Positions 218 to 11,476 are shown, numbered from the stretch's first letter. The stretch: 11,476 bases of DNA from Naegleria gruberi (GCA_000004985.1 GG739010.1); one strand, 5' to 3'. The notes: a model not told the origin generated them from the sequence alone. Program-made: numbers and translations.

Positions 218-1236
218 ATGACAACAAGAATCAACATTCTCCCTGACGAATTACAACTCGCTGCAGGTGTCTTGTCTTTACCAAACATTTTCGAAATCAA
301 GTATTCTGCACCAGTTCGTCTCTACAAAGCCAACAATGGTAATCAATGGTCATATGCCAATTCTTATGGAATTTTGACAGTTACATTGGTTGAAAAGCAA
401 TCAGTAGTAATGATTCGGTTGGTAGATTTGAAGAGTAAATCAGTTACTATGGAACAAGAATGTTATGAAGGTTTCGACTATCAAACACTTTCTTCCAATT
501 TTCATGCATTCGAATCTGATGATGGTTTTGTCGGATTGTTATTTGCTGAAAGATTTGATGCTGATCAATTTGCCAAGCAAGTTTGTCAACTCATTCGTTT
601 GAAAGCAACTGGTTCTATCAATGGTTCAACTCCAAGTTTGCCTTCAACTAAACCTTCTGTTAATATGAGAAGTGACAGTTCTGATTCTTCTTCTTCTTCA
701 CCAACTGGTACTGGTTCCAGTACTGCCCCACCTACTCCAGTGAAGAAGACTAATCCTCCTCCATCCACTCCTCCACCAGTTGCTAACAAGCCAACTGCTG
801 TCAATACTTCAATTGCTGCCAGTAGCTCAGTACATACTACCAGCACTACCTCTTCCCATAAGGAACCTGAAAAGAAACACATTCCTAGCAATAGCAGTAG
901 TGGAGGTAGTAGCAGTAGTGGAGGTGGTTTATTCTCCAAGATTTTCGGAACAAAGAATAAGGACCAAATTCCTGACCGGTCACAAATCAAAATTTCTGGA
1001 CCAAAGGTTGACAAGTTTAAACACGTTTCACACATTGGTTTTGATCCAAAGCTTGGCTTTACTGAAATCCCTCCACAGCTAAAAACCATTTTCGAGAAGG
1101 CAGGTATTTCTGAAGCTGAATTGAAAGATAAGAAAACTGCCAAATTTTTAATGAAGACACTTGTCACTGTCACATCAGATGCTCCCCCACCTCCTTCTTT
1201 GGATGTTCCAAGTGGAAGACCACAACCTCCACCAAN
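218..1236 (+). CDS. WASP-family actin nucleation-promoting factor, N-terminal part (WH1/EVH1 domain, basic region, CRIB/GBD, start of polyproline). 3' end lost in assembly gap
   Basis: Translation starts MTTRINILPDE. Residues about 20-125 (NIFEIKYSAPVRLYKANNGNQWSY...FHAFESDDGFVGLLFAERFDADQFAKQV) align by eye with the human WASP WH1 domain (LYLALPPGAEHW...[28 protein letters not shown]). A S/T/P-rich low-complexity linker follows, then a basic stretch (KNKDQIPDRSQIK). A CRIB core ISGPKVDKFKHVSHIGFDPKLGF matches the CRIB consensus I-S-x-P-x-x-F-x-H-x-x-H-V-G and human WASP [21 protein letters not shown]. The following AGISEAELKDKKTAKFL matches WASP AGISEAQLTDAETSKLI. Then DAPPPPSLDVPSGRPQPPP runs into the N gap. 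It is a single long exon. Its frame simply continues into the Ns, so the ORF-track 1712-aa product is an artefact. Confidence 0.88.
893..925 (+). repeat. Short tandem coding repeat (agcagtagtggaggt x2, encoding SSSGG-SSSGG) in the S/T/P-rich linker
   Basis: The direct repeat agcagtagtggaggt occurs at 893-907 and 911-925, separated by agt. It lies in a low-complexity Ser/Gly stretch of the WASP-family CDS. Confidence 0.5.
983..1060 (+). other. CRIB / GTPase-binding motif within the WASP-family CDS
   Basis: Encodes QIKISGPKVDKFKHVSHIGFDPKLGF. The I-S-x-P, F-x-H-x-x-H-V/I-G and D-P positions of the Cdc42/Rac-interactive binding motif are present. Confidence 0.8.
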
Positions 1237-4200
1237 NNNNNNNNNNNNNNNNNNNNNNNNNNNNNNNNNNNNNNNNNNNNNNNNNNNNNNNNNNNNNNNN
1301 NNNNNNNNNNNNNNNNNNNNNNNNNNNNNNNNNNNNNNNNNNNNNNNNNNNNNNNNNNNNNNNNNNNNNNNNNNNNNNNNNNNNNNNNNNNNNNNNNNNN
1401 NNNNNNNNNNNNNNNNNNNNNNNNNNNNNNNNNNNNNNNNNNNNNNNNNNNNNNNNNNNNNNNNNNNNNNNNNNNNNNNNNNNNNNNNNNNNNNNNNNNN
1501 NNNNNNNNNNNNNNNNNNNNNNNNNNNNNNNNNNNNNNNNNNNNNNNNNNNNNNNNNNNNNNNNNNNNNNNNNNNNNNNNNNNNNNNNNNNNNNNNNNNN
1601 NNNNNNNNNNNNNNNNNNNNNNNNNNNNNNNNNNNNNNNNNNNNNNNNNNNNNNNNNNNNNNNNNNNNNNNNNNNNNNNNNNNNNNNNNNNNNNNNNNNN
1701 NNNNNNNNNNNNNNNNNNNNNNNNNNNNNNNNNNNNNNNNNNNNNNNNNNNNNNNNNNNNNNNNNNNNNNNNNNNNNNNNNNNNNNNNNNNNNNNNNNNN
1801 NNNNNNNNNNNNNNNNNNNNNNNNNNNNNNNNNNNNNNNNNNNNNNNNNNNNNNNNNNNNNNNNNNNNNNNNNNNNNNNNNNNNNNNNNNNNNNNNNNNN
1901 NNNNNNNNNNNNNNNNNNNNNNNNNNNNNNNNNNNNNNNNNNNNNNNNNNNNNNNNNNNNNNNNNNNNNNNNNNNNNNNNNNNNNNNNNNNNNNNNNNNN
2001 NNNNNNNNNNNNNNNNNNNNNNNNNNNNNNNNNNNNNNNNNNNNNNNNNNNNNNNNNNNNNNNNNNNNNNNNNNNNNNNNNNNNNNNNNNNNNNNNNNNN
2101 NNNNNNNNNNNNNNNNNNNNNNNNNNNNNNNNNNNNNNNNNNNNNNNNNNNNNNNNNNNNNNNNNNNNNNNNNNNNNNNNNNNNNNNNNNNNNNNNNNNN
2201 NNNNNNNNNNNNNNNNNNNNNNNNNNNNNNNNNNNNNNNNNNNNNNNNNNNNNNNNNNNNNNNNNNNNNNNNNNNNNNNNNNNNNNNNNNNNNNNNNNNN
2301 NNNNNNNNNNNNNNNNNNNNNNNNNNNNNNNNNNNNNNNNNNNNNNNNNNNNNNNNNNNNNNNNNNNNNNNNNNNNNNNNNNNNNNNNNNNNNNNNNNNN
2401 NNNNNNNNNNNNNNNNNNNNNNNNNNNNNNNNNNNNNNNNNNNNNNNNNNNNNNNNNNNNNNNNNNNNNNNNNNNNNNNNNNNNNNNNNNNNNNNNNNNN
2501 NNNNNNNNNNNNNNNNNNNNNNNNNNNNNNNNNNNNNNNNNNNNNNNNNNNNNNNNNNNNNNNNNNNNNNNNNNNNNNNNNNNNNNNNNNNNNNNNNNNN
2601 NNNNNNNNNNNNNNNNNNNNNNNNNNNNNNNNNNNNNNNNNNNNNNNNNNNNNNNNNNNNNNNNNNNNNNNNNNNNNNNNNNNNNNNNNNNNNNNNNNNN
2701 NNNNNNNNNNNNNNNNNNNNNNNNNNNNNNNNNNNNNNNNNNNNNNNNNNNNNNNNNNNNNNNNNNNNNNNNNNNNNNNNNNNNNNNNNNNNNNNNNNNN
2801 NNNNNNNNNNNNNNNNNNNNNNNNNNNNNNNNNNNNNNNNNNNNNNNNNNNNNNNNNNNNNNNNNNNNNNNNNNNNNNNNNNNNNNNNNNNNNNNNNNNN
2901 NNNNNNNNNNNNNNNNNNNNNNNNNNNNNNNNNNNNNNNNNNNNNNNNNNNNNNNNNNNNNNNNNNNNNNNNNNNNNNNNNNNNNNNNNNNNNNNNNNNN
3001 NNNNNNNNNNNNNNNNNNNNNNNNNNNNNNNNNNNNNNNNNNNNNNNNNNNNNNNNNNNNNNNNNNNNNNNNNNNNNNNNNNNNNNNNNNNNNNNNNNNN
3101 NNNNNNNNNNNNNNNNNNNNNNNNNNNNNNNNNNNNNNNNNNNNNNNNNNNNNNNNNNNNNNNNNNNNNNNNNNNNNNNNNNNNNNNNNNNNNNNNNNNN
3201 NNNNNNNNNNNNNNNNNNNNNNNNNNNNNNNNNNNNNNNNNNNNNNNNNNNNNNNNNNNNNNNNNNNNNNNNNNNNNNNNNNNNNNNNNNNNNNNNNNNN
3301 NNNNNNNNNNNNNNNNNNNNNNNNNNNNNNNNNNNNNNNNNNNNNNNNNNNNNNNNNNNNNNNNNNNNNNNNNNNNNNNNNNNNNNNNNNNNNNNNNNNN
3401 NNNNNNNNNNNNNNNNNNNNNNNNNNNNNNNNNNNNNNNNNNNNNNNNNNNNNNNNNNNNNNNNNNNNNNNNNNNNNNNNNNNNNNNNNNNNNNNNNNNN
3501 NNNNNNNNNNNNNNNNNNNNNNNNNNNNNNNNNNNNNNNNNNNNNNNNNNNNNNNNNNNNNNNNNNNNNNNNNNNNNNNNNNNNNNNNNNNNNNNNNNNN
3601 NNNNNNNNNNNNNNNNNNNNNNNNNNNNNNNNNNNNNNNNNNNNNNNNNNNNNNNNNNNNNNNNNNNNNNNNNNNNNNNNNNNNNNNNNNNNNNNNNNNN
3701 NNNNNNNNNNNNNNNNNNNNNNNNNNNNNNNNNNNNNNNNNNNNNNNNNNNNNNNNNNNNNNNNNNNNNNNNNNNNNNNNNNNNNNNNNNNNNNNNNNNN
3801 NNNNNNNNNNNNNNNNNNNNNNNNNNNNNNNNNNNNNNNNNNNNNNNNNNNNNNNNNNNNNNNNNNNNNNNNNNNNNNNNNNNNNNNNNNNNNNNNNNNN
3901 NNNNNNNNNNNNNNNNNNNNNNNNNNNNNNNNNNNNNNNNNNNNNNNNNNNNNNNNNNNNNNNNNNNNNNNNNNNNNNNNNNNNNNNNNNNNNNNNNNNN
4001 NNNNNNNNNNNNNNNNNNNNNNNNNNNNNNNNNNNNNNNNNNNNNNNNNNNNNNNNNNNNNNNNNNNNNNNNNNNNNNNNNNNNNNNNNNNNNNNNNNNN
4101 NNNNNNNNNNNNNNNNNNNNNNNNNNNNNNNNNNNNNNNNNNNNNNNNNNNNNNNNNNNNNNNNNNNNNNNNNNNNNNNNNNNNNNNNNNNNNNNNNNNN

Positions 4201-5319
4201 NNNNNNNNNNNNNNNNNNNNNNNNNNNNNNNNNNNNNNNNNNNNNNNNNNNNNNNNNNNNNNNNNNNNNNNNNNNNNNNNNNNNNNNNNNNNNNNNNNNN
4301 NNNNNNNNNNNNNNNNNNNNNNNNNNNNNNNNNNNNNNNNNNNNNNNNNNNNNNNNNNNNNNNNNNNNNNNNNNNNNNNNNNNNNNNNNNNNNNNNNNNN
4401 NNNNNNNNNNNNNNNNNNNNNNNNNNNNNNNNNNNNNNNNNNNNNNNNNNNNNNNNNNNNNNNNNNNNNNNNNNNNNNNNNNNNNNNNNNNNNNNNNNNN
4501 NNNNNNNNNNNNNNNNNNNNNNNNNNNNNNNNNNNNNNNNNNNNNNNNNNNNNNNNNNNNNNNNNNNNNNNNNNNNNNNNNNNNNNNNNNNNNNNNNNNN
4601 NNNNNNNNNNNNNNNNNNNNNNNNNNNNNNNNNNNNNNNNNNNNNNNNNNNNNNNNNNNNNNNNNNNNNNNNNNNNNNNNNNNNNNNNNNNNNNNNNNNN
4701 NNNNNNNNNNNNNNNNNNNNNNNNNNNNNNNNNNNNNNNNNNNNNNNNNNNNNNNNNNNNNNNNNNNNNNNNNNNNNNNNNNNNNNNNNNNNNNNNNNNN
4801 NNNNNNNNNNNNNNNNNNNNNNNNNNNNNNNNNNNNNNNNNNNNNNNNNNNNNNNNNNNNNNNNNNNNNNNNNNNNNNNNNNNNNNNNNNNNNNNNNNNN
4901 NNNNNNNNNNNNNNNNNNNNNNNNNNNNNNNNNNNNNNNNNNNNNNNNNNNNNNNNNNNNNNNNNNNNNNNNNNNNNNNNNNNNNNNNNNNNNNNNNNNN
5001 NNNNNNNNNNNNNNNNNNNNNNNNNNNNNNNNNNNNNNNNNNNNNNNNNNNNNNNNNNNNNNNNNNNNNNNNNNNNNNNNNNNNNNNNNNNNNNNNNNNN
5101 NNNNNNNNNNNNNNNNNNNNNNNNNNNNNNNNNNNNNNNNNNNNNNNNNNNNNNNNNNNNNNNNNNNNNNNNNNNNNNNNNNNNNNNNNNNNNNNNNNNN
5201 NNNNNNNNNNNNNNNNNNNNNNNNNNNNNNNNNNNNNNNNNNNNNNNNNNNNNNNNNNNNNNNNNNNNNNNNNNNNNNNNNNNNNNNNNNNNNNNNNNNN
5301 NNNNNNNNNNNNNNNNNNN
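1237..5319. other. Assembly gap (4083 N)
   Basis: Uninterrupted run of n. It must hide the WASP C-terminus (rest of the polyproline region, WH2/V, central and acidic regions) and the copine N-terminus (tandem C2 domains), plus the intergenic spacer between them. Confidence 0.99.
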
Positions 5320-6183
5320 GTTGCCAGGAAGGAAAACCGCCAAGATCAATTTTTAGACCACATTATGGGAGGATGTAACATTTCAGTATCAGTTGGCATT
5401 GATTTTACTGCATCAAACGGTGGTTTCACCAGTAGTAGCTCCCTCCATTATTTAAGTTCCAAGAAGAATCACTATCAACAAGCCCTTGCACAAGTTTTGC
5501 AAATTTTGGAACCTTATGATTCTGACAAGATATATGGTGGTAAGTATTTGACTTTTAACACTTTCACTAATTATTCGAAAGCATATGGATATGGTGCAAG
5601 GATAGATAAGGAATTAAAAATGAATCCAATGTTTAATCTGTCACTCTCAGATAAGGAGGAACTTTGTGTAGGAGAAATACTTGAAGCATATGAGAAGGCA
5701 GTTCCAAGACTATCATTTGGAGATATGGGAAGTGCCACTAATCCAAAAACTGGAAAGCCTTATCGAGGAGATGACTTTTATAGAGTTATTGAACATGTCG
5801 TTGAGAGAACTCCTCCTGTTACTCAACAACAACAATTCTACAATATTCTATTGTTAATTATTGATGGTGATGCATTTGACATGCAAGGCACAATCGATTC
5901 AATTATAGAGGCCAATGACAAACCTATCTCAATTGTAATTGTTGGTATTGGTGGTAGAAGTTTCCCAAGTTGTAGAAAATTCGATGCTGATGATGAACCA
6001 CTCATTCACAGTAATGGAACTAAAATGACAAGAGACATTGTTCAATTTGTGAGCTTTTCTGAATGTTCTGATTTAACACAATTAGCTTCTGAAGTGCTAG
6101 CTGAAATACCCAAACAAATGGTTACGTATTTTGAATCAAAAGAAATTATTCCTAATCCACGACCTCAAAGTGCTTTCTACTAA
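5320..6183 (+). CDS. Copine, C-terminal vWA-like 'A domain' (5'-partial, emerges from the gap). Contains a 42-nt in-frame intron at 5540-5581
   Basis: Frame 1 is open from the gap edge: ...RKENRQDQFLDHIMGGCNISVSVGIDFTASNGGF...SLHYLS... Compare the copine consensus FLDY(I/V)MGGCQINFTVG(I/V)DFT(A/G)SNG and SLHYI. Downstream LLLIIDGDAFDMQGT, ISIVIVGIGG, DIVQFVSF and the C-terminal LASEVLAEIPKQMVTYF track the copine family (human: FVLLIITDGVITD, MSIIIVGVGG, DIVQFVPF, LAQCVLAEIPQQVVGYF). TAA stop at 6181-6183. The ORF track starts it at M5365 only because it demands a start codon. Confidence 0.9.
   Translation, partial: VARKENRQDQFLDHIMGGCNISVSVGIDFTASNGGFTSSSSLHYLSSKKNHYQQALAQVLQILEPYDSDKIYGGKYLTFNTFTNYSKAYGYGARIDKELKMNPMFNLSLSDKEELCVGEILEAYEKAVPRLSFGDMGSATNPKTGKPYRGDDFYRVIEHVVERTPPVTQQQQFYNILLLIIDGDAFDMQGTIDSIIEANDKPISIVIVGIGGRSFPSCRKFDADDEPLIHSNGTKMTRDIVQFVSFSECSDLTQLASEVLAEIPKQMVTYFESKEIIPNPRPQSAFY
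5540..5581 (+). other. Spliceosomal intron (42 nt, phase 1, in-frame read-through) inside the copine CDS
   Basis: GTAAGT donor at 5540-5545, a CACTAAT branch-like motif 13 nt upstream of the acceptor, and AAAG acceptor at 5578-5581. Removing it converts the read-through DKIYGGKYLTFNTFTNYSKAYGYGARI into DKIYGAYGYGARI. That restores the invariant copine motif D-K-[MI]-[FY]-[PG]-A-[FY]-G-[FY]-G-A-[QR]-I (human DKMFPAFGFGAQI). Length 42 is a multiple of 3 with no in-frame stop, so six-frame translation hides it. Confidence 0.8.
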
Positions 6184-7291: not shown

Positions 7292-8257
7292 TTATATTGA
7301 AGTTGCATTGATCGTTTGATTAAGGTTTGGTGATTGTTTTGTTTCATTAGAAATTAGATTGGAAATTTTGAGATTCAGTGGAAAGTCCTCTATTTTCAAA
7401 ATTTCCTTGTGTAAAAAGTTGGAGTAATCTTGTGTTTTGAGCAGTTGCTGTCTGAGAATGTCGTTGGATTTTCTTAGACTCTCTGTTTGTGTAACCTCAA
7501 TTGATAGTCTATATTTGAGTCTATCAATTTCTGTTTTTAAAGAATTGGTTATATCTTTTTCATTGGAAAGTCCTTTTTTAAGAAGTTGTATTTCATCCAA
7601 TCTTCCGTGTAAGGAGGTGGTAAGGTCATGAATCTTCTTATTGCTTTCATCCTTAGATTTGGTGTATAATTTTTTACATTGAGCAAGTGAAACTTCAGAA
7701 TCCTTCCCAAGTTTTTTGTAATTTACAAGCTTTCTTTCTAAGGAGTTTGCATACTGTTCTAGTTCTCTAAATTTGATTTCTGATTGTCTTTCGAATATCG
7801 TGTCTCTGGTGAGGAATGAAATACTTTCAGAAAGGTTGTGCATGGACTTTAAAAACTCGAAAGGGACTTGATTTCTATGGTAAGGAGTGTCTTCACTAAG
7901 GACGGAATTGAGAAGGTTTAATTTAGTTGAGAGTTCAGAGGTTAGATCGTTAATTTCATCGTACAAGTGCATTCTCAGACTTTCATCCTTATAAACCTCT
8001 CTATCAATGAGTCTATTTGTTGGTTCCATTGTTTCAAAGAATGTGTCTTCCAATTTATCTCCTTCTGTTTCAATAAAATCTGTTTCATTTTCTTCCTTAG
8101 ATGTTATTTCCTTCACTTTCTCTTGAATTTCAAAATCTGATGAGAGAGGTGAGTCTATTGAAGTAAATTCATCTGCATCAATGATTGGTGCTTTGTTTAC
8201 AACTTCTGAAACAAAAGGTCCAATCTCGAATCTAAATACTTCATCTGTCCGAATGAA
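7292..8257 (-). CDS. Coiled-coil protein of unknown function (5' end unresolved; N-terminus probably in the adjacent gap or an upstream exon)
   Basis: The minus-strand frame is open for 322 codons, from an in-frame TGA at 8258-8260 (flush with the N run) to a TAA at 7292-7294. The ORF-track start at 8116 is a GTG. The first in-frame ATG is at 8029-8027 (METMEPTN...). Upstream of it the frame still reads protein-like and acidic (FIRTDEVFRFEIGPFVSEVVNKAPIIDADEFTSIDSPLSSDFEIQEKVKEITSKEENETDFIETEGDKLEDTFFET). The body is heptad-rich (LERKLVNYKKL, EIQLLKKGL, EIDRLKYRL, LRQQLLKTQ) and the tail is S/N-rich. Confidence 0.6.
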   Translation of the reverse strand, partial: FIRTDEVFRFEIGPFVSEVVNKAPIIDADEFTSIDSPLSSDFEIQEKVKEITSKEENETDFIETEGDKLEDTFFETMEPTNRLIDREVYKDESLRMHLYDEINDLTSELSTKLNLLNSVLSEDTPYHRNQVPFEFLKSMHNLSESISFLTRDTIFERQSEIKFRELEQYANSLERKLVNYKKLGKDSEVSLAQCKKLYTKSKDESNKKIHDLTTSLHGRLDEIQLLKKGLSNEKDITNSLKTEIDRLKYRLSIEVTQTESLRKSNDILRQQLLKTQDYSNFLHKEILKIEDFPLNLKISNLISNETKQSPNLNQTINATSI

Positions 8258-8270
8258 TCANNNNNNNNNN

Positions 8271-8640
8271 NNNNNNNNNNNNNNNNNNNNNNNNNNNNNN
8301 NNNNNNNNNNNNNNNNNNNNNNNNNNNNNNNNNNNNNNNNNNNNNNNNNNNNNNNNNNNNNNNNNNNNNNNNNNNNNNNNNNNNNNNNNNNNNNNNNNNN
8401 NNNNNNNNNNNNNNNNNNNNNNNNNNNNNNNNNNNNNNNNNNNNNNNNNNNNNNNNNNNNNNNNNNNNNNNNNNNNNNNNNNNNNNNNNNNNNNNNNNNN
8501 NNNNNNNNNNNNNNNNNNNNNNNNNNNNNNNNNNNNNNNNNNNNNNNNNNNNNNNNNNNNNNNNNNNNNNNNNNNNNNNNNNNNNNNNNNNNNNNNNNNN
8601 NNNNNNNNNNNNNNNNNNNNNNNNNNNNNNNNNNNNNNNN
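8271..8640. other. Assembly gap (370 N)
   Basis: Run of n. The ORF-track 8181..8660 ORF is translated Ns. Confidence 0.99.
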
Positions 8641-8758: not shown

Positions 8759-9544
8759 ATGTTTTCAGAATCAACAGCCTCTTGCTACTTTGATGAGCCT
8801 GTTATATTTGAGACTCTTTCTACTCGGCGTGAGGTCTTACTAACAGACAAACACTCCGATTTTACAAAATCCAAAACACCTTTTAGATACGAAACTACAA
8901 TAGAATTCTCGAAAATGTATCAGTATCTGTTTTGGTTAAAAGTTATCTGGTGCATGATGATGGAAAATCTAGTGTTCCACTAACAGGATCTGGATTGTTG
9001 CTAACTCCAATACGTGAAGGAAGCAATTCAACGATTTTTATTGCAACTGCCCTACACTCCATTCTGCAATTTAGACACCCTCTAGTTGGATTAGAGGTAC
9101 ATTTTTGTAAGCACTCTTCATTGCCCATTTGTATTTTAAATGGTAAAGTTGTTAGTCATGGAAAACCCTTATCTCTGAAACTTTTTCCTAATGAAGATTG
9201 GGCAATAGTAGAACTCGATAAAACAAGTGGTGAAGTGTTTGATTTATTATTCAATAGTAATCAGCTTCCAGCAATCCCTTCCCTGTTGGTGATTCAACGA
9301 CCATCAAAAGTAGAGAAAACAATATTGAGTGATAGATATTCTATGGCACTTTTTTCCATTCTTCTCCCAACCTCTTAACAACAAGGAGATATGTATGGGT
9401 ATGGAACAATGCTTTCCGAGCAAGCACTTTTTCATACCTTATGCGATTGTTTTTGGAGCTATGGCTTTTAGTGTTGAAATTCCTTTCTTTGAGGAATGGT
9501 TGCTTTTAAAAGACATTGAGTTGATATACCAAGAAAAGCATTAA
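8759..9544 (+). CDS. Hypothetical protein, composite gene model over three ORF-track ORFs (8759-8983, 8932-9378, 9329-9544), joined by short introns or by one intron plus an assembly frameshift
   Basis: Three consecutive same-strand ORFs overlap in staggered frames (codon phases 2, 1, 2). The track starts of ORF2 and ORF3 are TTG and GTG, not ATG. The first real ATG in ORF3 leaves only a 50-aa product, so splicing is the likelier explanation. Junction 2: a GTAGAG donor at 9310 and an AG acceptor at 9384-9385 preceded by CTTAAC give a 76-nt intron (length 3n+1) that joins phase 1 to phase 2 exactly (...VIQRPSK|EICMGMEQCFPSKHFF...). Junction 1 needs an intron of length 3n+2. The candidates are GTATCA 8917 or GTATCT 8923 to AG 8972 (56 or 50 nt), or GTGAGG 8829 to CACTAACAG 8986 (158 nt). 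A 1-nt assembly error is the alternative. The protein has no domain I can name (…TGSGLLLTPIREGSNSTIFIATALHSILQFRHPLVGLEVHFCKHSSLPICILNGKVVSHGKPLSLKLFPNEDWAIVELDKTSGEVFDLLF…). Confidence 0.45.
9310..9385 (+). other. Candidate 76-nt intron joining exon 2 and exon 3 of the 8759-9544 gene
   Basis: GTAGAG donor sits at a phase-0 codon boundary. AG acceptor lies at 9384-9385 with cctCTTAACaacAAG upstream. Length 3n+1 converts phase 1 to phase 2 as required. The downstream frame opens only at 9329 (TGA at 9326-9328), so the acceptor must be at or after 9329. Confidence 0.4.
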
Positions 9545-9740: not shown

Positions 9741-10773
9741 TTAAAACTTATTAAATGCCAATCTTGGCTCTTCCAATAAAATTTCAGAATCAATATTTTG
9801 TCTTGGTGGTGTCATTGCCATAACGGTGTGTCTTCTTGTTGTTGGTTTTGTGGCCTCTTTTGGTTTTCCAATAAAATCATCATATACTTCATCACTCTTT
9901 TCTTCGTCATCAGTTTCAGATTGATTTGTGTAAAGATGAGCATGATGATCGAAGGCATCATGATAATGGTTTTGATTTTGATCATGCCCTGGATGAGCAT
10001 TCTTTGGAATATGCTGAGCTTTAGCCAAATATAGAGAAACACTGTGTCCTGCATGTAGGTAATGCGTTGACTTATCAAAGATGATGTACAAGTGAACAAA
10101 AACTTCCAAAATTTCCACTGCCAACTCTTCCTCAAGTGTAACTGTTTTGTAAGCAAATTCTCTGGNNNNNNNNNNNNNNNNNNNNNNNNNNNNNNNNNNN
10201 NNNNNNNNNNNNNNNAAAACAGATGATTCAATCCAGTTTACCCAAATTGAAAGAGGTTTCTTCCTGGAAATTGCAATCAATTCTCTGACATATCTGAAAG
10301 TGAAAAGTAAAATTAAAATAGCCATGTATAGATATGAAAGAACTTTGAATGCCATTTGCATATCCTTCTCTGTTTGATTATTTGTGTTTGAAGCTTTGCC
10401 CAATACGTCATTTGCTTGAACGTATGTAATAGTAGCAAACTTTTGTGTGATTTAGTTTAATTTATCCTTTCCAACAACCTACCTTTAGAACTGAATAAAT
10501 ATACATCTTTAATCTTCTATTTCCGATCGTCCAACTAGAAAATTTCTTCCATCTCCTTGCTACTGTATCAGTCCACGACCCATTATTATTTGATCCACCT
10601 CCATTATTATTATTAGGTTTAGTATTAAAATCTTTAATTGCCGAAGCATCAAAATATGGAGTAGAATCTGATAAACTATCTTCATTGTTGGTTTTTGATG
10701 TTGTTGGTGTCAACTTTCTGCCATACGCCTCTGAAACAATGAGTGGCTTTGATCCAGAACGATGTATCGACAT
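9741..10773 (-). CDS. Two-exon gene: S/N-rich N-terminal region, single TM helix, C-terminal domain with a His-rich acidic tail (exon 1 10773-10483, intron 10482-10440, exon 2 10439-9741; interrupted by a 50-N gap)
   Basis: ORF-track ORFs 10462-10773 (ATG start, MSIHRSGSKPLIV...) and 9741-10403 (TTG 'start') lie head-to-tail on the minus strand. Exon 1 ends ...TCA GTT CTA AAG, immediately followed by GTAGGT. A 43-nt intron follows (gtaggttgttggaaaggataaattaaACTAAATcacacaaaag), with an ACTAAAT branch-like motif 13 nt before the AG. Its length is 3n+1, exactly the shift needed from codon phase 0 to phase 2. Exon 2 opens FATITYVQANDVLGKASNTNNQTEKDMQMAFKVLSYLYMAILILLFTFRYVRE (one hydrophobic helix). 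It continues ...EFAYKTVTLEEELAVEILEVFVHLYIIFDKSTHYLHAGHSV...HPGHDQNQNHYHDAFDHHAHLY...SETDDEEKSDEVYDDF... and ends at a TAA. Confidence 0.5.
10166..10215. other. Assembly gap (50 N) inside the minus-strand CDS
   Basis: Run of n. About 17 codons are lost. The frame is conserved across it only if the true gap length is 3n+2, which is unknown. Confidence 0.99.
10440..10482 (-). other. Candidate 43-nt intron (GTAGGT...ACTAAAT...AG) joining ORF-track ORFs 10462-10773 and 9741-10403
   Basis: See the CDS entry above. Canonical donor, branch-like motif and acceptor are all present. Phase arithmetic is exact. Its size class matches the verified copine intron (42 nt). Confidence 0.45.
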
Positions 10774-11038: not shown

Positions 11039-11476
11039 ATGATTACCTTCTTATTGAGGAATTTGTTAATAAAAAGAATTAAAATGACTACACCAACAAC
11101 TCAACAACAGCAAAGCAAAACACCAACAACAGAAGGCAATCATCACAATGAATTCTTCTTCAATGCATCAAACGTGCCGAAACCTCTAAAACTCAGTCTT
11201 CGATCCAAAATCAAAAACTATATGAAACATAATGGTTACTTTTTGGATATGGAAATTCTTCAGGTTATAATTTCCTTTCTCTTTTTTGTTATTTTCATTG
11301 CGGACGTTTACACAAATTTTGTTTTCTATTCGCAAATTTATCCTCAATCAAGGCCAACTCCTGAAAATTCCTTCTCACTCTCTGATCAACATATTCAATT
11401 CATGTTGCAGAGTATATTCATTTGTGATTTGATACTGTGTACCATAACTGTTTCATTGTGGTTCGTTTCCTTTCTC
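11039..11476 (+). CDS. Membrane protein, N-terminal fragment (cytosolic Q/T-rich N-terminus followed by at least 2 predicted TM helices). Runs off the 3' end of the window and is absent from the ORF track
   Basis: The frame is open from 10955 to the window end, with in-frame ATGs at 11039 (MITFLLRNLLIKRIK-) and 11084 (MTTPTTQQQQSKTPTTEGNHHNEFFFNASNVPKPLKLSLRSKIKNYMKHNGYFLDMEILQ). Two hydrophobic segments follow: VIISFLFFVIFIADVYTNFVFY and IFICDLILCTITVSLWFVSFL. A GT...TTGCAG stretch at 11264-11410 looks intron-like but reads through as a clean TM helix, so it is treated as coding. Confidence 0.5.
   Translation, partial: MITFLLRNLLIKRIKMTTPTTQQQQSKTPTTEGNHHNEFFFNASNVPKPLKLSLRSKIKNYMKHNGYFLDMEILQVIISFLFFVIFIADVYTNFVFYSQIYPQSRPTPENSFSLSDQHIQFMLQSIFICDLILCTITVSLWFVSFL

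Follow-up and report, generated by a model that had tools for sequence, protein, structure and literature searches.

CDF/ZnT and ZIP transporters carry disordered, cytosolic His-rich loops or tails beside membrane helices that hold conserved His, Asp and Glu residues. Here we analyze a Naegleria gruberi gene, NAEGRDRAFT_76516, whose predicted product also pairs membrane helices with a His- and acid-rich tail. The gene lies at 9741..10773 on the minus strand of a complete N. gruberi scaffold (GCA_000004985.1 GG739010.1; 11,476 bp, ~33% GC), which constitutes the window of this study and contains runs of N at 1236-5319, 8261-8640 and 10166-10215. An earlier interpretation made from this DNA without database searches (the sequence-only reading) had proposed that two adjacent open reading frames (ORFs) are joined by a short intron and encode a single-pass membrane protein with a tail that might bind metal.

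Comparison with homologues indicates that 9741..10773 is one protein-coding gene with two exons, and that its product is a member of a small Naegleria/Willaertia family (the D2VDT0/D2W528 group) characterized by four hydrophobic helices and a His-rich tail. The account developed below, comprising a single gene, its intron, a four-helix family, a revised gap size and a faulty public model, is in our judgement highly probable as a whole. GenBank already annotates both the gene and its 43-nt intron, which are hence not new; introns of small size are usual in Naegleria, and the gene itself is an ordinary member of an uncharacterized, lineage-specific family. A literature search on the family locus tags and UniProt identifiers found no paper.

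Gene structure and the 43-nt intron

The gene is described by the following features.

10483..10773, minus: exon 1, 97 codons, with the ATG at 10773-10771 and a Ser/Asn-rich N-terminus
10507-10524, minus: basic motif GNRRLK, in exon 1
10483-10506, minus: MYIYSVLK, first half of predicted helix 1, at the end of exon 1
10440..10482, minus: intron, 43 nt, phase 0, GTAGGT...ACTAAAT...CAAAAG, parting the codons of helix 1
10216..10439, minus: exon 2 before the gap, from FATITYVQAN to VNWIESSV
10166..10215, no strand: gap of 50 N, standing for an estimated ~98 nt (~34 codons)
9741..10165, minus: exon 2 after the gap, from predicted helix 4 to the TAA (9741-9743)
10071..10241, minus: apparently false 'intron' of the public model, 171 nt (3n), GTAAAC...GATAAG

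The splice proposed by the sequence-only reading can be recovered in every detail. The minus-strand ORF 10773..10462 ends in ...YIYSVLK VGCWKG TAA, with AAG|GTAGGT six codons ahead of the stop, and excision of the 43 nt at 10482..10440 (GTAGGTTGTTGGAAAGGATAAATTAAACTAAATCACACAAAAG), which run from GTAGGT through ACTAAAT to AAAG and amount to 3n+1, joins its frame to that of 10439..9741, ending in TAA. Upstream, an in-frame TAA lies two codons 5' of the ATG at 10773, and the exon 1 N-terminus (MSIHRSGSKPLIVSEAYG) aligns to those of a N. lovaniensis relative (P0003, MSFHNKPPLVLSEAFS) and of a metagenome locus (L010, MSSSLDKPLVVSEQLYG). A frame-restoring GT..AG pair is in itself weak evidence, not beyond chance. 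Enumeration of this region yields 27 GT-AG pairs of 20-300 nt that leave an open frame, and support for the intron therefore rests on the homologues, since one pair alone yields the conserved motif. That pair is 10482/10440, which gives MYIYSVLK|FATITYVQAN, an indel-free match to the family junction motif MYIYSxLK|FxxITYVQAN, the motif best conserved in the N-terminal part of these proteins.

This junction is uninterrupted in three relatives: P0003, the Willaertia magna protein P0007 and the environmental Naegleria-like protein P0006. The W. magna gene is one unbroken 768-nt ORF (L003; junction region MYLYSVLKFFSITYVQAN), and P0003 (L001) and P0006 (L004, L005) are likewise encoded by a single ORF through the junction, which reads MYIYSCLKFLTITYVQAN in L001 and L004. 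Phase-0 introns at the same boundary, after the Lys, are found in a second N. lovaniensis gene (P0004, L002; 86 nt, GTATGC...ACAG) and in L010 (35 nt, GTATGT...TTTAG). A protein search with the conceptually spliced product, as the sequence-only reading had suggested, returned as best match the N. gruberi 'predicted protein' deposited for this same locus (P0001; EFC35826.1 / XP_002668570.1 / UniProt D2W528), whose splice junction, SVLK|FATITYVQ, is identical to 10482/10440. On these comparisons the 43-nt GT-AG intron is real, and the joining of the two ORFs into one gene, which both rebuilds the family motif and equals the public model, is borne out. The GC content of the window agrees with the 33% described for the N. 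gruberi NEG-M genome, in which genes average 1.7 exons and introns 203 bp; a minimum intron of 30 bp was set in N. fowleri read mapping (PMC8296547).

Intron positions also vary elsewhere in the family. In the gene for P0003 (L001, about 3771..3884) a phase-1 intron, GTAAGT...CAAAAG, lies inside the HxxHxxH motif (HAS|HSVS), with none at the K|F boundary. Prokaryote-style gene calls on related metagenome contigs run into this HAS|HSVS intron (L004 585..1382; P0006, P0011, P0039), producing spurious tails that read ...HASKLENV or ...HASK.

The assembly gap and the public gene model

With the 50 N translated as 18 X the spliced product has 329 aa, in agreement with the ~330 aa anticipated by the sequence-only reading; its relatives point to a true length of about 345 aa. 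The difference arises at the gap, which had been thought to remove about 17 codons. Alignment to complete relatives gives approximately twice that loss: in all six, ~34 residues separate the counterparts of ...ESSV and REFA... (for example FLTYFIYSCFTAILHIVYIGKKYASEVVEREEKP), so that the run of 50 N would stand in for some 98 nt. The partial codons on either side of the run, GTT TT|N and N|CC AGA, are compatible with V-[F/L] and P-R, where relatives read V-F...P-E; that the reading frame is kept over the gap (2 + 50 + 2 = 54) is a coincidence. Judged from the relatives, the gap hides most of helix 3, including its near-invariant T...H, together with an acidic loop. No full-length, gap-free copy of the studied protein was found in the protein collections searched.

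The deposited protein XP_002668570.1 shares with our reading the locus, start, stop and 43-nt junction, and differs in the removal of a further 171 nt (10241..10071), which leaves 272 aa (329 - 57) and the sequence ...KKPLSIW|STHYLHAGH. That the 272-aa version is correct, the 171 nt being truly spliced and the protein having fewer helices, is suggested by the fact that it is the deposited model and by the GT...AG ends of the segment. Against it, 10241..10071 is a multiple of three (57 codons), holds no in-frame stop and exactly brackets the N run, as is typical of an annotation work-around; moreover, it encodes VNWIESSV and REFAYKTVTLEEELAVEILEVFVHLYIIFDK, which show high identity to the relatives and include positions conserved throughout the six-sequence alignment A2. 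The correctness of the deposited model is thus extremely improbable. Its structure around the gap is, on this comparison, wrong and the 171-nt 'intron' a work-around, at the cost of two conserved helices, helix 4 in full and helix 3 in its opening part. At the gap the read-through of the sequence-only reading, which agrees with the relatives, would be nearer the truth than the database entry. An equally slight probability attaches to the proposal that the locus holds two genes, the upstream ORF ending at the TAA at 10462 and the downstream one starting at an internal ATG (MQMAFKV...). Each ORF is open by itself and the splicing had been deduced from DNA alone, but all relatives with an exon-1-like region run on into the helices, three of them without an intron; no relative ends at ...SVLKVGCWKG, and separate genes would halve conserved helix 1. 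The sequence-only reading had named exon-1 orthologues ending at this point as fatal to its proposal; none of the retrieved proteins is one. By the testimony of the homologues, both the two-gene and the 272-aa readings appear effectively excluded.

Family membership and membrane architecture

Exhaustive hidden Markov model search of 1.84 billion representatives identified 32 cluster representatives at E <= 0.001. Members with an assigned organism all come from N. gruberi, N. lovaniensis, N. fowleri or Willaertia magna, and the others from metagenome or read-archive contigs; two more profile searches, started from diverse and from divergent members, found no relatives outside the family. Searches with the spliced protein gave E-values of 1.6e-66 to 5.4e-33 to seven relatives; P0002, P0003, P0004 and P0007 are 45-50% identical to the query across 51-80% of its length. 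The named relatives, all of them hypothetical proteins with no assigned name, are the N. gruberi paralogues NAEGRDRAFT_67028 (P0002, XP_002677797.1) and NAEGRDRAFT_69795 (P0040), N. lovaniensis C9374_010166 (P0003) and C9374_002264 (P0004), W. magna ABK040_006057 (P0007), and N. fowleri FDP41_003969 and FDP41_012605. They share with the studied protein the motifs GNRRLK, FTxRYxRE, NWxE, VEILEV..H.YII.DK, THxLHxGHSVS and QHIPK, as well as a His/acid-rich tail ending in AFxxL; they differ in the presence of the K|F intron and, widely, in tail length and His content. No variation is seen across 20 members in the R, R and E of FTxRYxRE (after helix 2) or in the N and E of NWxE (where helix 3 begins); F, L, the T and H within helix 3, and the QHIP proline are near-invariant. 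The window protein carries the family RYVRE and NWIE, and its equivalent of the helix 4 motif VEILEV..H.YII.DK followed by HxxHxxH, SVS.YL and QHIPK is LAVEILEVFVHLYIIFDKSTHYLHAGHSVSLYLAKAQHIPK. By sequence comparison, the product belongs to a lineage-restricted and uncharacterized membrane family that has paralogues in the pathogen N. fowleri and, in its predicted membrane part, conserved charged residues.

The features of the encoded protein, all on the minus strand, are as follows.

10506-10483 and 10439-10410 (FATITYVQAN), minus: predicted helix 1, split by the intron
10296-10352, minus: predicted helix 2, AFKVLSYLYMAILILLFTF
10251-10295, minus: invariant RYxRE and basic linker, after helix 2
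10218-10241, minus: predicted start of helix 3, VNWIESSV, continuing into the gap
10071-10124, minus: predicted helix 4, LAVEILEVFVHLYIIFDK
10044-10067, minus: THYLHAGH (HxxHxxH), juxtamembrane, after helix 4
10002-10046, minus: HSVSLYLAKAQHIPK, after HxxHxxH
9936-10001, minus: His-rich stretch, in exon 2
9864-9920, minus: acidic stretch with YDDFIGK, in exon 2
9825-9836, minus: RRHT, in exon 2; C-terminal LAFNKF followed by TAA

The hydrophobic stretch noted in the sequence-only reading is present (aa 127-145), but the topology built on it, a single membrane pass, does not hold: four hydrophobic helices are predicted. A Kyte-Doolittle scan of the gap-free paralogue P0002 with 19-residue windows locates hydrophobic segments at residues 49-67 (weak, 1.16), 84-102 (2.05), 127-145 (1.95) and 176-194 (1.41). 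An AlphaFold2 model of the same paralogue, built on a 20-sequence family alignment (mean predicted local distance difference test score, pLDDT, 73.6; core blocks 88-96; tail below 50), places helices at 24-38, 43-64, 76-113, 119-160 and 172-200, with a disordered tail from about residue 207. According to the model and the scan, the core of the family is built from four hydrophobic helices in an up-down bundle, after which comes a disordered C-terminal tail, an arrangement that a reading of the raw ORFs would mistake for a single-pass protein. The positive-inside rule would place three parts on the cytosolic side, namely the N-terminus with its basic WKKF and GNRRLK, the basic helix 2-3 loop RYxRELIAxxRKKPL and the C-terminal tail, and would have the acidic helix 3-4 loop (EY..E.EERE..PEEF) face outward or toward a lumen.

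The His-rich tail, neighboring genes and comparison with known systems

The His-rich and acidic stretches described in the sequence-only reading are both present in the 329-aa product (NAHPGHDQNQNHYHDAFDHHAH, aa 244-265, and SETDDEEKSDEVYDDF). Past helix 4, the order is HxxHxxH (THYLHAGH), SVSLYLAKAQHIPKNAHPGH and the His/acid-rich tail. Enrichment in His at the tail position recurs in divergent clades, many members carrying 7-17 His among the first 40 residues of the tail, and a distant clade (P0023, P0041, P0043, P0044, P0045) has tails of the form (HG/HD/HE)n that are 26-37% His, with up to 31 His. Conversely, P0014, P0016 and P0017 have no HxxHxxH, short tails with 0-1 His and no E..E..H in helix 4. 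This pattern suggests that the tail may be a selected metal-binding module beside a bundle with buried polar residues, and its recurrence in relatives makes metal binding, raised as a speculation in the sequence-only reading, more plausible. An example of an (HG/HD/HE)n tail, from read-archive or metagenome contigs such as L008, reads HEHEHHDDHDEHDEHGHGHDDHHGGHGEHGHGHDDHH.

We tentatively propose that the product could be a membrane protein for metal sequestration, export or sensing, probably oligomeric. HxxHxxH, the conserved HIPKxAHPGH and the His/Asp/Glu-rich tail would provide binding sites for a divalent transition metal (Zn, Cu or Ni) on the cytosolic side of the putative oligomer, and the tail might hand the metal to, or sense it for, the polar residues of the bundle, namely the E at the start of helix 3, the T...H in helix 3 and the E..E..H...D in helix 4. 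Were metal binding true, the family would be a lineage-specific component added to Naegleria metal homeostasis. The broader notion that the family, including its N. fowleri paralogues, forms an unrecognized class of small oligomeric metal-handling membrane proteins, in which HxxHxxH and the tail would capture Zn, Cu or Ni and the polar residues of the four helices would conduct or sense it, we regard as unlikely.

The proposal competes with one that keeps the gene structure and assigns the tail a role unrelated to metal, as a disordered low-complexity or pH-sensitive segment of a scaffold, trafficking or structural protein with four transmembrane helices, like MARVEL or MS4A; this too is possible while falling short of an even chance. 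Several considerations weigh against our account. Low-complexity tails rich in His, Asn and acidic residues can arise without function, and some subfamilies of the present family are wholly without a tail. The gene structure is read from DNA and homologues; helix 3 of the studied gene is hidden in the gap and reconstructed from relatives, and helix 1 is weakly hydrophobic (Kyte-Doolittle 1.16, two Lys) and might be interfacial. Searches of Pfam and the PDB and with Foldseek gave no similarity to a known transporter, channel or metal-binding family. An external lead is likewise limited. Mass spectrometry of N. gruberi detected the paralogue XP_002677797.1 (P0002), the sole family member among the entries listed, which is marked 'IC', that is, present in one condition only, neocuproine versus copper (PMC9035749 Table S1). 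Because it stands in the second of the IC blocks, below the up-regulated fold changes, it may, as a weak lead, have been absent under copper chelation; the direction is read from row order, several hundred entries are marked alike, and the protein is a paralogue and not the product of the studied gene.

The genes around the locus bear on one further explanation. Divergent from the studied gene, 11084..11476 (plus strand), cut by the scaffold end, encodes the N-terminus of a membrane protein, and is homologous (40% identity, E 1e-23) to the neighbor (1345..2516, minus) of the family gene in L010. The latter neighbor is a Kv-like K+ channel with an S4-like RIFRLLRILF, the pore motif TIGYGD and a Pfam Ion_trans_2 match, and the head-to-head pairing is kept between N. 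gruberi and L010, its closest environmental orthologue. The divergent pairing with a channel-type homologue, common to the window and L010, raises the possibility that the studied protein is an accessory subunit of the divergent voltage-gated-type K+ channel. The pairing is nevertheless restricted to one orthologue pair, the family genes in L001, L002, L003 and L006 having other neighbors, and gene adjacency in eukaryotes seldom implies shared function; we therefore consider an accessory-subunit role very unlikely.

The remaining ORFs of the window are as follows. The ORF at 218..1235 (plus) encodes the N-terminal region of a WASP-type actin regulator (WH1, E 1.7e-15; P21-Rho-binding/CRIB, E 1.7e-11; a Pro-rich stretch) and is truncated by the 4,084-N gap at 1236..5319. 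Just past that gap, 5365..6183 (plus) encodes a full Copine domain (E 3.5e-46), probably as the C-terminal end of a copine that has its C2 domains inside the gap. At 7292..8116 (minus) lies a coiled-coil-like ORF of 274 aa with a high content of Glu, Lys and Leu and no Pfam match; the 380-N gap at 8261..8640 separates it from three overlapping plus-strand ORFs (8759-8983, 8932-9378 and 9329-9544) that are probably one intron-containing gene, 8759..9544, convergent with the studied gene.

Comparison with known families and folds situates the product as follows. Pfam searches with both halves of the window protein and with the neighboring ORF returned nothing significant, and those with six relatives gave sub-threshold noise only (DUF1746 0.02, DHHC 0.019, MscL, others), far under gathering scores. 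A profile search of PDB sequences gave zero matches at E <= 10, and Foldseek against the PDB with a first, poor model (pLDDT 56) gave nothing at E <= 0.001. Membership in the CDF/ZnT, ZIP or Ctr families was rejected, since a Pfam search at E <= 1 with the window protein and the six relatives gave no Cation_efflux, Zip or Ctr match. A voltage-sensor or Hv1-type protein was also rejected: helix 4 is acidic and His-bearing with no Arg repeat, and there is no Ion_trans match. A bis-His haem-binding bundle came into consideration through designed haem maquettes among the fold matches, but those matches are generic, and a single intramembrane His (helix 3) is near-invariant, so that this candidate was set aside as well.

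The MARVEL/synaptophysin, sarcospan and MS4A/CD20 bundles are 4-9% identical to the family, with no Pfam match. Scores as high as those of the MARVEL/MS4A types are also reached by soluble and designed four-helix bundles, and the likeness appears generic to the fold. With CDF/ZnT and ZIP transporters the family shares a His/Asp/Glu-rich disordered segment, placed by inference on the cytosolic side, beside its helices, a likeness of composition only; it differs from these and from Ctr proteins in its predicted four helices, as against 6, 8 or 3 in CDF/ZnT, ZIP and Ctr.
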